Below are positions 10,212-46,539 of a stretch of 64,000 bases of DNA, one piece after another; positions within the stretch are counted from its first letter, which is position 1; every line of letters starts with the position of its first letter. A program made the translations under genes and the position numbers. The stretch comes from Escherichia coli (GTDB lineage: Bacteria; Pseudomonadota; Gammaproteobacteria; Enterobacterales; Enterobacteriaceae): NCBI RefSeq assembly GCF_003334405.1, contig NZ_QOWM01000004.1. One strand, written 5' to 3'. The notes beneath the pieces were generated by a model. That model was not told the DNA's origin and searched no databases. It was given only the letters and a program-made list of their open reading frames with translations.

Positions 10212-11171
10212 ATGAAAACAGAGACTCCATCCGTAAAAATTGTTGCTATCACCGCTGACGAAGCGGGGCAACGTATCGATAACTTTTTGCGTACCCAATT
10301 GAAAGGCGTACCAAAAAGTATGATTTACCGTATTTTGCGTAAAGGCGAAGTGCGGGTGAACAAAAAACGTATTAAGCCTGAATATAAACTCGAAGCGGGT
10401 GATGAGGTGCGTATTCCACCGGTTCGCGTTGCTGAGCGGGAAGAAGAGGCGGTTTCGCCACATCTGCAAAAGGTGGCGGCGCTGGCGGACGTCATCTTAT
10501 ATGAAGATGATCACATCCTGGTGCTGAATAAACCTTCCGGTACGGCGGTACATGGCGGCAGTGGTTTAAGCTTCGGCGTTATTGAAGGTTTGCGGGCGTT
10601 GCGCCCGGAAGCGCGGTTCCTTGAACTGGTTCATCGTCTTGACCGGGACACCTCAGGTGTTTTGCTGGTAGCGAAAAAACGCTCGGCGTTGCGTTCTCTG
10701 CATGAGCAATTACGTGAAAAAGGGATGCAAAAAGATTACCTGGCGCTGGTGCGCGGTCAGTGGCAGTCGCATGTGAAGAGCGTTCAAGCACCGTTACTGA
10801 AAAATATTCTGCAAAGCGGCGAACGTATCGTGCGTGTGAGTCAGGAAGGCAAACCGTCGGAAACACGCTTTAAAGTGGAAGAACGCTATGCATTTGCCAC
10901 CCTGGTGCGTTGTAGCCCGGTAACAGGGCGTACTCACCAGATCCGTGTGCATACACAATATGCGGGTCATCCGATTGCCTTTGACGATCGCTACGGTGAC
11001 CGTGAATTTGACAGGCAGCTCACTGAAGCAGGCACGGGATTAAATCGCCTGTTCCTGCACGCTGCAGCGTTGAAGTTTACTCATCCGGGGACCGGTGAGG
11101 TGATGCGTATCGAAGCTCCGATGGATGAAGGTTTGAAGCGTTGTTTGCAAAAGCTGCGTAACGCGCGCTAA
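10212..11171 (+). CDS. rluC: 23S rRNA pseudouridine synthase RluC
   Basis: 319-aa ORF with S4-like N-terminus and RluA-family catalytic motif HRLDRDTSGVLL. Confidence 0.9.
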   Translation: MKTETPSVKIVAITADEAGQRIDNFLRTQLKGVPKSMIYRILRKGEVRVNKKRIKPEYKLEAGDEVRIPPVRVAEREEEAVSPHLQKVAALADVILYEDDHILVLNKPSGTAVHGGSGLSFGVIEGLRALRPEARFLELVHRLDRDTSGVLLVAKKRSALRSLHEQLREKGMQKDYLALVRGQWQSHVKSVQAPLLKNILQSGERIVRVSQEGKPSETRFKVEERYAFATLVRCSPVTGRTHQIRVHTQYAGHPIAFDDRYGDREFDRQLTEAGTGLNRLFLHAAALKFTHPGTGEVMRIEAPMDEGLKRCLQKLRNAR

Positions 11172-11203: not shown

Positions 11204-11274
11204 GCCTGATAAGGCGTTTACGCCGCATCAGGCCGCCAGCACCGATTGCCGGATGCGACGTAACCACATCCGGC
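11204..11274. repeat. REP/BIME palindromic elements
   Basis: GCCTGATAAGGCGTTTACGCCGCATCAGGC and GCCGGATGCGACG...CACATCCGGC palindromes between convergent rluC and yceF. Confidence 0.75.
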
Positions 11275-11282
11275 GCAAAAAA

Positions 11283-11867
11283 CTATCCCATCAGCGGGTT
11301 TTTCCCTTCCCGACGTAACATCTGACACAGCGCGATTAGCGGTAAACCAACCAGCGTGTTAGGATCACGCCCCTCTAAACGCTCAAACAGCGTAATGCCA
11401 AATCCTTCACTCTTAAAGCTACCCGCGCAGTGCAGGGGATGCTCTTTACGCACGTAATTATCAATCTCCGCCTCGCTCAGGTGACGGAAATGGACGTCAA
11501 AAGGCTCCACTTCTGTTTGCAGATGCCCATTCGCCGAATTAAACAACGCCAGTCCAGTATAGAAGGTGACGATATTGCCGCTGGCTTTGCGTAATTGCAG
11601 ACGGGCATTTTCTTCCGTTAACGGTTTACCGGTGATTTCGCCATCAAGAACACATACCTGGTCTGAACCAATAATTAAATGATCCGGATAACGTGACGCC
11701 AGAGATTGCGCTTTTTCTTGTGCCAGTCGAAGCACCAACTGTCGCGGTGATTCGTCGCTGCGTGGGGTTTCGTCGACCTCTGGTGCTGCACATTCAAAAG
11801 AGATTTGCAGTTTTTCCAGAAGAGCGCGACGCCATGGCGAGGTGGAGGCTAAAATAAGTTTAGGCAT
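11283..11867 (-). CDS. yceF: Maf-family nucleoside triphosphate pyrophosphatase YceF
   Basis: ORF 11283..11906 trimmed to [20 protein letters not shown] (194 aa), Maf-like fold. Confidence 0.85.
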
Positions 11868-12036
11868 ATTTTTTTCCATCAGATATAGCGTATTGATGAT
11901 AGCCATTTTAAACTATGCGCTTCGTTTTGCAGGTTGATGTTTGTTATCAGCACTGAACGAAAATAAAGCAGTAACCCGCAATGTGTGCGAATTATTGGCA
12001 AAAGGCAACCACAGGCTGCCTTTTTCTTTGACTCTA
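11868..12036 (+). ncRNA. sraB: small RNA SraB region (yceF-yceD intergenic)
   Basis: 199-bp gap upstream of yceD; weak hairpin AAAGGCA-N9-TGCCTTT with T-run at 11991-12015; placement from established E. coli map, ends approximate. Confidence 0.45.
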
Positions 12037-30414: not shown

Positions 30415-30957
30415 ATGATTATCTATTTACACGGTTTTGACTCTAACAGTCCGGGTAACCACGAGAAAGTCTTACAATTGCAGTTTATTGACCCGGATGT
30501 ACGCTTGATAAGCTACAGTACGCGGCATCCGAAACATGATATGCAGCATCTGCTTAAAGAAGTGGACAAAATGTTGCAACTGAACGTTGACGAGCGTCCG
30601 CTAATTTGCGGCGTTGGCTTGGGCGGATACTGGGCGGAACGGATTGGTTTTCTTTGCGACATCCGCCAGGTGATCTTCAACCCTAATTTGTTCCCTTATG
30701 AGAACATGGAAGGCAAGATTGATCGCCCGGAAGAGTATGCCGATATTGCCACTAAGTGTGTGACCAACTTCCGTGAGAAGAATCGCGATCGTTGCCTGGT
30801 GATTTTGTCGCGTAATGATGAAGCGCTTAACAGCCAGCGGACATCTGAAGAGTTGCATCATTATTACGAGATTGTCTGGGACGAAGAGCAGACGCACAAA
30901 TTCAAGAATATCTCCCCGCATTTACAGCGCATTAAAGCGTTCAAAACCCTCGGGTAA
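30415..30957 (+). CDS. ycfP: UPF0227 family esterase-like protein YcfP
   Basis: ORF 30358..30957 trimmed to [14 protein letters not shown] (180 aa). Confidence 0.8.
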
Positions 30958-30963
30958 ATGCCC

Positions 30964-31097
30964 TCGTCGCATCAGGTAACCTTGCCGGTACCTGATGCGC
31001 TCCGAATTCTGTGGGTCGGATAAGGCGTCCACGCCGCATCCGACAGTCGAGCATCAATGCCTGATGCGCTTCTTATCAGGCCTACCGAACGCCCTGC
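30964..31097. repeat. REP/BIME cluster
   Basis: several imperfect palindromes of REP type (CGCATCAGG...CCTGATGCG, GTCGGATAAGGCGTCCACGCCGCATCCGAC, GCCTGATGCGCTTCTTATCAGGC). Confidence 0.75.
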
Positions 31098-44791: not shown

Positions 44792-45631
44792 ATGCTGTCG
44801 CGTCGGGGTCATCGGTTAAGTCGTTTTCGTAAAAATAAACGCCGCCTGCGCGAGCGTTTGCGTCAGCGTATTTTTTTCAGAGATAAAGTGGTGCCGGAAG
44901 CAATGGAAAAACCAAGAGTACTCGTACTGACAGGGGCAGGAATTTCTGCGGAATCAGGTATTCGTACCTTTCGCGCCGCAGATGGCCTGTGGGAAGAACA
45001 TCGGGTTGAAGATGTGGCAACGCCGGAAGGTTTCGATCGCGATCCTGAACTGGTGCAAGCGTTTTATAACGCCCGTCGTCGACAGCTGCAGCAGCCAGAA
45101 ATTCAGCCTAACGCCGCGCATCTTGCGCTGGCTAAACTGCAAGACGCCCTCGGCGATCGCTTTTTGCTGGTGACGCAGAATATCGACAACCTGCATGAAC
45201 GCGCAGGTAATACCAATGTGATTCATATGCATGGGGAACTGCTGAAAGTGCGTTGTTCACAAAGTGGTCAGGTTCTCGACTGGACAGGAGACGTTACCCC
45301 AGAAGATAAATGCCATTGTTGCCAGTTTCCGGCACCCTTGCGCCCGCACGTAGTGTGGTTTGGCGAAATGCCACTCGGCATGGATGAAATTTATATGGCG
45401 TTGTCGATGGCCGATATTTTCATTGCCATTGGCACATCCGGGCATGTTTATCCGGCGGCTGGGTTTGTTCACGAAGCGAAACTGCATGGCGCGCACACCG
45501 TGGAACTGAATCTTGAACCGAGTCAGGTTGGTAATGAATTTGCCGAGAAATATTACGGCCCGGCAAGCCAGGTGGTGCCTGAGTTTGTTGAAAAGTTGCT
45601 GAAGGGATTAAAAGCGGGAAGCATTGCCTGA
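44792..45631 (+). CDS. cobB: NAD-dependent protein deacylase CobB (sirtuin), long isoform
   Basis: 279-aa ORF; Arg-rich N-terminal extension then GAGISAESG Rossmann motif; a shorter isoform from an internal Met is possible. Confidence 0.88.
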
Positions 45632-45721
45632 TGCACTACGCTTATCAGGCCTGCAAGGGGACGCAATTAATTGAATTTGCGGGTTTTGTGGGCCGGATAA
45701 GGCGTTCGCGCCCCATCCGGC
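45626..45721. repeat. REP/BIME elements
   Basis: GCCTGATGCACTACGCTTATCAGGC (overlapping cobB stop) and GGCCGGATAAGGCGTTCGCGCCCCATCCGGC between convergent cobB and ycfZ. Confidence 0.7.
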
Positions 45722-45750
45722 ATAATACACGCGCACTTTTCCGGCCTCTT

Positions 45751-46539
45751 TTATCGTTTACTCGTCAATAACAATGCGGCAATAAACGTACAGACACCAA
45801 TTAGCCCTGCCCAGAGTGGCGATATTCTGGTAATCGCAAAGCTATTATCGATATACAAACATAAAGCCTGATAACCCATATTGGCAATAGTCATCGCCAC
45901 TGCAAATTTTAACGCATAAATAAAACGAGTCGTGTAGTAAAAGATCCTGGAAAATAAGATAAACGTCGCAGCCCAGGCGATAAAACCTAATGTGTTGGTG
46001 CTGCCGGGGGGAGCATTTTCATGCTGTTGTCCTGGATGCGGATAATACGTTAGTGGCGGCGTCGATTGTTTTAATATCTGTGCTTGTAGAACAGCCAATG
46101 CATTATTGATTCCCTGATACCAGAGATCTGCATTTAAATAAGCCAGCGTGTGATTTTCTATCAGAAGGCCGAGATGTTTATCGTCCAGACCACTTTCAAC
46201 CTGGCCGTTGGTGATCATAATTAACCGTGGTTCGCGGGTAGTAAATAGTAACAGAACACTTCCTTTTACATCACTCAATGAAGATGACGCATGCGCCAGC
46301 ATCGCTTTACCATTTTGTCTGAGACTGGCTTCATTATTAATGTCGGGTAAAACCACAATAAACGGTGCAATTCCCGTTTGTTGGCGAAAAAGCTCGGCTT
46401 TATGCGCGATCTCTTCAGCATCTGGTACAGTACCGGTAACGTCCGTAAAAAGTGTCTTCATTATTGGAATTAATGGCTTGCTGGCTGCTGTCAGAGGCAG
46501 GAGTATCAGTAAACTGAGCAGTATAATGAATTTTTTCAT
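45751..46539 (-). CDS. ycfZ: inner-membrane protein YcfZ
   Basis: 262-aa ORF with signal/TM segments. Confidence 0.78.

Follow-up and report, generated by a model that had tools for sequence, protein, structure and literature searches.

The window analysed here, a 64,000-nucleotide stretch of an Escherichia coli genome (contig NZ_QOWM01000004.1), carries the gene order lolE-nagK-cobB on the plus strand, followed by ycfZ-ymfA-potD on the minus strand. The cobB coding sequence (44792..45631, + strand, from the list of open reading frames) encodes a Sir2-family deacylase of 279 residues in its K-12-type allele, identical to MG1655 b1120, and converges with ycfZ (45751..46539, − strand). The window is collinear with MG1655 over the 12 kb compared and differs from it only at 45721 and 48770; it is thus a close relative of K-12, not MG1655 itself. 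At the first of these positions the window has a C that completes the palindrome of the second REP described below, and MG1655 has an A.

A sequence-only reading of this DNA had placed a REP-type palindrome at 45626-45650, beginning 3 nt before the cobB TGA so that the last codon and the stop lie in its stem, and had noted a second canonical REP downstream. We find all of this to be correct, and its coordinates and description of the palindrome to be exact. The palindrome, GCCTGATGCACTACGCTTATCAGGC, has two 7-nt arms, GCCTGAT (45626-45632) and ATCAGGC (45644-45650), which are 100% complementary and separated by 11 nt. The coordinates of the reading frame put the functional stop codon (45629..45631, + strand) inside the 5′ arm as part of the REP consensus GCC-TGA-TG; the GCC of Ala279 occupies 45626-45628, and the arm holds only this last sense codon and the stop. 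Together with the foot CTGC that follows it, the palindrome makes up REP1 (45626..45654, + strand), which has the features of a Z1-type REP: an imperfect palindrome in the range of 20-40 nt that fits the consensus GCCKGATG...CTTATCMGGC. REP1 aligns column for column, over its whole length, with the Z1 REPs of other BIME-1 loci. The multi-copy Z1 REPs of E. coli (Bachellier/Gilson nomenclature, summarised in PMC3333891) have the same consensus, GCCTGATGCG-CTA-CGCTTATCAGGC-CTAC, and likewise form an imperfect palindrome with an internal mismatch. It differs from them in its foot, which is CTGC and not CTAC, in a G-to-A change in the upper stem, and in that 6 of its nucleotides are coding or stop, so that its location is not extragenic in the strict sense. 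Palindromes of the form GCCKGAT-N6-25-ATCMGGC occur five times in the 64-kb window, compared with a mean of 0.035 and a maximum of 1 in 200 dinucleotide-preserving shuffles, and are therefore not a product of chance.

REP1 is accompanied by a Y-type REP in inverse orientation. This second element, REP2 (45688..45721, − strand), consists of a foot, GTGG (45688-45691), and the palindrome GCCGGATAAGGCGTTCGCGCCCCATCCGGC (45692-45721), and ends 29 nt from the ycfZ stop. The approximately 33 nt between the two REPs (45655..45687) align with the L linkers of four other loci of the composite element known as BIME-1, which by definition pairs a single y REP with a single z1 REP inverted relative to it, has a long conserved L linker between them and occurs in single copy (Ton-Hoang et al., 2012; PMC3333891). 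Each part of this definition is found at cobB: the Z1 REP lies on the plus strand and the Y REP on the minus strand, the long conserved linker separates them, and the gap between cobB and ycfZ holds only these two REPs and hence a single copy and no tandem array. Such elements are also called RIP/RIB elements.

Read on the minus strand, the segment 45735..45615 aligns end to end with elements at four other E. coli loci, one of them beside gyrB. All have a common layout of a Y REP, GCCGGATGCGGCGTGAACGCCTTATCCGGCCTAC, a linker, and an inverted Z1 REP, GTAGGCCTGATAAGCGTAGCGCATCAGGC. The linkers at cobB and the four other loci follow the pattern ACAAAACC...GCAAATTCAAT..ATTGC, and the invariant core across the aligned loci, on the minus strand, is ACAAAA..GCAAATTCAAT..AT.GC. 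Searching with an L-linker consensus, we found the linker family in every one of the 5,426 complete E. coli genomes; the median is at least 25 places per genome, and K-12 strains have 40 or more. A BLAST search of all E. coli genomes with the locus's own 41-nt linker returned only the orthologous site, and had been a reason to consider that the locus might not be a BIME-1 at all; we rejected that reading, since the result reflects the limited sensitivity of so short a query at the roughly 75% identity that separates it from the other copies.

The cobB element also resembles other BIME-1 copies in lying between the 3′ ends of convergent transcription units and in carrying an IHF-type motif; it differs from them in the part of the linker beside REP1, which has diverged (GT-CCCCTTGCAG versus AGGAAACACGTAG), and in that both of its GTAG feet are mutated. 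The motif, ATTCAATTAATTG (45664..45676, − strand), was recovered by a pattern scan, matches WATCAANNNNTTR at 12 of 13 positions, and falls within the stretch of the L alignment where conservation is highest; by our own estimate chance alone would yield about 0.1 matches of this quality in the region. IHF sites are frequent in the L linkers of BIME-1 (PMC3333891), and at the DNA level the cobB BIME-1 is probably an IHF site. A comparison with Rfam returned, apart from a noise match, only the naRNA4/CssrE family (RF02564), on REP2 alone and at 32.4 bits, below the gathering score of 59.5. This resemblance would follow from the REP-derived origin of the naRNA4 RNA family.

We conclude from these alignments that the palindrome at the end of cobB represents the Z1 half of an old, single-copy BIME-1 that fills the gap between the convergent cobB and ycfZ genes. 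What the sequence-only reading had missed is that REP1, as its partner and linker indicate, is one half of a BIME-1 and not a palindrome standing alone.

The element appears to have lost its capacity to be mobilised. The GTAG/CTAC foot, which is needed for binding and cleavage by TnpA-REP (PMC3333891), is intact in neither REP of the window copy, reading CTGC in REP1 and GTGG in REP2. The family conserves this tetranucleotide, although descent, and not the foot, decides whether a copy is a REP. Among the other alleles read, from E. coli strains and E. albertii, the REP1 foot is CTAC in 6 of 7; strain PCN061 has CTGC, and Z226-1 has CTGT. REP1 is therefore probably a REP by descent that bears a point mutation in its foot and is no longer a substrate of TnpA-REP, and since both feet are mutated the cobB copy as a whole should be inert to the REP transposase by the requirements given in PMC3333891.

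The overlap between the stop codon and REP1 has a separate and more recent origin. Alignment of E. coli alleles with that of E. albertii gives the ancestral gene end unambiguously as GGA TTA TAA agcaggaagcatt GCCTGATGCG..., with the REP beginning 13 nt after this stop in Escherichia. The window instead reads GGA TTA -AA AGC GGG AAG CAT TGC CTG A, which in frame is TTA AAA GCG GGA AGC ATT GCC TGA. Between 45610 and 45611 the window lacks a single T, the one with which the TAA began, and in the nucleotide alignment it is missing only from K-12-type alleles; TAA, ending a CobB of 273 residues, is present in all eight of the non-K-12-type E. coli alleles read. As a result of this loss, six lineage-specific codons encoding KAGSIA (45611..45628, + strand) have been added and translation ends at the TGA of the REP, 18 bases downstream of the original stop; all Z-type REPs have this TGA in the 5′ arm. 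A REP that in the ancestral allele was wholly extragenic thus overlaps the last codon and stop by 6 nt in the window allele. Since the ancestral arrangement is found in both species, the REP was in place before E. coli and E. albertii separated, and the end of the gene moved into it. We conclude, by alignment, that the overlap is secondary: a 1-nt deletion in a lineage that includes K-12 and the window removed the TAA and moved termination into the REP. The overlap is accordingly no original design feature, a point that had escaped the sequence-only reading. For this account of the identity and origin of the element and its overlap, which is drawn from comparison of sequences, our confidence is very high.

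The K-12-type gene end is common. An exact-word search with its 44-mer matched 1,708 of 5,426 complete E. coli genomes (31%), a lower bound for this allele; ancestral-type 45-mers matched 2,156 and 475 genomes, counts that may overlap, and at least about 1,100 genomes carry other variants of the flanking sequence. Three changes are tightly linked in this allele: the deletion, an A-to-G change close by and the G-to-A change of the upper stem. For 1,697 of the 1,708 matches, identity over the 44-mer is 99% or higher.

We also compared 80 loci encoding CobB relatives, taking one genome per species and reading each frame to its stop. In approximately 40 of the 80 loci CobB ends in ...LLKGL-stop after 272-274 residues, with varied stop codons; these include the GTDB representative of E. 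coli, E. albertii, all Citrobacter, Salmonella diarizonae, Enterobacter spp. and many other Enterobacteriaceae. The KAGSIA tail was not found in the more distant genera among the 80 loci, where C-terminal ends differ in other ways. REPs near the cobB stop are more widespread. In Citrobacter youngae, C. werkmanii, Citrobacter sp. Cu233, Salmonella diarizonae and Pluralibacter (loci L007, L008, L061, L012 and L014) a REP in the same orientation begins 6-8 nt past the stop and is followed by an inverted REP. Judging from these loci, a REP near the cobB stop is a recurrent or old feature of the clade, and the overlap is particular to one lineage of E. coli.

Among K-12 structures, the newer PDB entry 6rxj matches CobB residues 39-279 and so takes in the terminal ...KAGSIA, and the 1s5p construct ends at residue 274. 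In archaeal Sir2 structures the alignment extends no further than CobB residue 273; the tail is beyond the conserved Sir2 fold. The 279-residue K-12 CobB used in structures such as 6rxj thus carries a six-residue tail that is missing from many or most natural E. coli and from all sampled sister genera.

In RNA form REP1 is a modest, even weak, hairpin. Folding energy had been suggested as a check on the palindrome, and the result is divided: the isolated 25-mer folds with −10.3 kcal/mol, significantly better than its shuffles (z = −3.9; none of 200 as good), but in a 45-nt context the signal drops to z = −1.1 and is not significant. The G-to-A change in the upper stem, which is particular to the K-12-type allele, weakens the hairpin from −12.4 kcal/mol in the ancestral form to the −10.3 kcal/mol of the window allele. 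REP2 is more stable, with −20.0 kcal/mol on the plus strand and −24.9 kcal/mol on the minus strand. Stems as weak as REP1 are melted routinely by ribosomes.

One published data set points to termination on the cobB strand well beyond the BIME. Adams et al. (2021; PMC7815308, Supplementary file 2) list a Rho termination region on the cobB strand at MG1655 position 1,180,809 (Rho score 3.35, p = 8.2e-6), which we mapped through the collinear locus to window position 46081 (+ strand), 450 nt beyond the cobB stop, where it lies antisense to ycfZ. The curated Term-seq tables of the same study, covering three growth conditions, contain no 3′ end in or near the BIME, from MG1655 1,180,3xx to 1,180,5xx. 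The sequence-only reading had proposed that the stem might affect mRNA 3′ stability or ribosome release, and had named transcripts ending well downstream as a point against it; in this one data set the Rho region some 450 nt downstream and the empty Term-seq interval do count against processing at the REP. The missing 3′ end may be due to low expression of cobB. From the downstream Rho region together with the absence of a 3′ end at the BIME, we conclude that transcription on the cobB strand passes the BIME and that the REP is not the terminator.

Two classes of REP described previously offer models for how the element might nonetheless act on cobB mRNA. REP hairpins resist 3′-to-5′ exonucleases, and stems of this kind are where the trimming of many Rho-terminated transcripts stops (Dar and Sorek, 2018; PMC6061677). 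cobB is similar in having stable hairpins in its 3′ UTR and a Rho region further downstream, and differs in having no steady-state 3′ end at the BIME in the one Term-seq table searched. According to the summary in PMC12306157 of work by Liang, Rudd and Deutscher (2015), ribosomes are stalled by REPs that lie no more than 15 nt from a stop codon, which leads to mRNA cleavage, rescue by tmRNA and less protein. Both cobB alleles fall within this distance, the REP beginning 3 nt before the stop in the window and 13 nt after it in the ancestral form. As that class is summarised there, the window allele departs from it in that its stop lies inside the stem and not upstream of it, and in that its hairpin is comparatively weak. 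A full-text literature search combining cobB with REP yielded nothing but typing papers on other subjects and no report of stalling, cleavage or tmRNA rescue for cobB; a search with the REP sequence string gave nothing useful, and the RepRanger supplements mention neither cobB nor ycfZ.

By analogy with these classes, we suggest that REP1 (about −10 kcal/mol) and REP2 (about −20 kcal/mol) would form hairpins in the cobB mRNA, that transcription would run past them until Rho ends it hundreds of nucleotides on, inside the antisense ycfZ, and that the hairpins would slow 3′-to-5′ exonucleases as REPs generally do. Both alleles would further belong to the class of REPs that impede ribosomes at the stop, with cleavage, tmRNA rescue and lower yield to be expected. 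When the UGA of the K-12 allele occupies the A site, the ribosome would enclose the entire 5′ arm of REP1 and most of its loop, so that REP1 would be fully melted at every termination event. REP2, 61 nt downstream, would remain outside the ribosome and, as the stronger potential barrier to exonucleases, could still protect the 3′ end. The effects on mRNA stability and ribosome release proposed in the sequence-only reading in this respect match published REP biology, as described in PMC6061677 and as summarised in PMC12306157. We nevertheless hold this functional part, the hairpin effects on cobB mRNA and translation, only tentatively, with rather more doubt than conviction; the combined account of identity, origin and mechanism we consider reasonably probable.

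The position of a hairpin right at a gene end, between convergent genes, could also suggest that REP1 or the whole BIME terminates the nagK-cobB transcript, and some REPs have indeed been reported to take part in termination (PMC3333891, PMC6061677). We disfavour this reading and give it hardly any credence. REP1 is followed by CUGCAAGGGG, and there is no U-run after either REP; a terminator scan of the intergenic gap (45632-45750) returned no hairpin with a U-run, and we reject an intrinsic terminator at the BIME; and the Rho region and Term-seq tables described above also stand against it.

Far more weight, though still less than even, attaches to the possibility that the overlap is a neutral accident, in which a DNA-level or selfish repeat happened to supply the nearest in-frame stop that rescued a frameshift, and the stability, termination and activity of cobB are unaltered. 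The weakness of the REP1 hairpin, weaker than its ancestor, fits this possibility, as do the lack of a mapped 3′ end at the REP, the position of the tail past the residues shared with archaeal Sir2 structures and the 1s5p construct, and the prevalence of both alleles in natural E. coli (1,708 versus at least 2,156 genomes); the mutated feet of both REPs suggest a decaying element. It is harder to reconcile with the lowering of translation reported generally for REPs within 15 nt of a stop, as summarised in PMC12306157, and with the conservation of the arrangement: a REP is kept near the cobB stop in Escherichia, Citrobacter, Salmonella and Pluralibacter, and REP1 itself in 5,425 of 5,426 E. 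coli genomes, even where the neighbouring ycfZ-ymfA is deleted. We find very little to recommend the opposite proposal, that the stop-loss is adaptive and that the stop in the stem or the KAGSIA tail tunes CobB abundance in the K-12-like lineage through stalling and tmRNA tagging or a C-terminal degradation signal. The allele is frequent and its three changes are tightly linked, but common descent alone predicts such linkage, and the tail is short and outside the fold. An outside chance, in our estimation, is that in the K-12-like third of E. coli the placement of the stop in the stem and the exchange of a strong TAA for a weaker TGA set CobB output, and with it global lysine acylation, differently from most natural E. 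coli, whether by stronger REP-dependent stalling and tmRNA tagging or by the six-residue tail; if so, laboratory CobB biology would rest on an atypical allele.

Returning to the account we favour, an old BIME-1 with a secondary stop overlap and possible effects on the mRNA, its overall significance is small. Few repeats of E. coli are as well catalogued as REPs and BIMEs, earlier publications cover both the proximity of REPs to stop codons and what it does to translation, and REPs, BIME-1 and the 15-nt rule are all established, so the element at cobB is of a catalogued kind. New here, and modest, is the recognition from the aligned alleles that the overlap is a lineage-specific stop-loss and that the K-12 CobB is six residues longer than the form in sister genera and in all the non-K-12-type E. 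coli alleles read. The pair of cobB alleles, with the stop either 13 nt before the REP or inside it, provides natural material for studying the 15-nt rule with a stop in the stem.

The region downstream of cobB is itself variable. Approximately 590 of 5,425 E. coli genomes, including O157:H7, have neither ycfZ nor most of ymfA, so that cobB is directly convergent with potD; the loss spans window positions 45662 to about 46975 (loci L002:2732-2870, L003:2714-2870 and L087). The junction, ...caaggggac/cacaataccga..., lies just past the REP1 foot and keeps the first approximately 19 codons of a diverged ymfA, and this remnant identifies the absence as a deletion. The same junction is found with both K-12-type and ancestral cobB ends, which suggests one event spread by recombination. 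The remnant ymfA frame (L002:2745-2830, − strand) stops at the TGA that this same REP presents on its minus strand (GCCTGATAA), so that the Z1 palindrome gives a stop codon on both strands. In most Enterobacteriaceae the convergent potD follows cobB directly (loci L006-L083). Among the 80 loci, ycfZ-ymfA homologues lie between cobB and potD only in Escherichia and Phytobacter massiliensis, so the pair looks like a variable insert at the cobB-potD site; Entomohabitans has distant homologues of the pair downstream of cobB.

An open reading frame of 46 residues (45631..45771, + strand) begins at the ATG of the TGATG overlap with the cobB stop. It is very unlikely to be coding, since it crosses the repeats of the BIME and a 1-nt indel disrupts it in the E. 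coli representative (L004). Between REP2 and ycfZ, the sequence CTTTTCCGGCCTC (45736-45748), with a U-rich stretch after it, looks like the 3′ half of a REP and shows 91% complementarity to the REP2 5′ arm. The K-12 and S3 alleles have this sequence, and the other full-length alleles read have CTTTACT-GCCTC. Elsewhere in the window, a solitary Z1-like REP with an intact CTAC foot, GCCTGATGCGCTTCTTATCAGGCCTAC (31059-31085), lies approximately 100 nt after a reading frame ending at 30957. A second BIME, with a short linker (11204-11274), sits between the convergent reading frames 10212..11171 (+ strand) and 11283..11906 (− strand); a distance of 8 nt separates the end of its second REP from the stop codon of the minus-strand frame, so that this REP, too, falls under the 15-nt rule.
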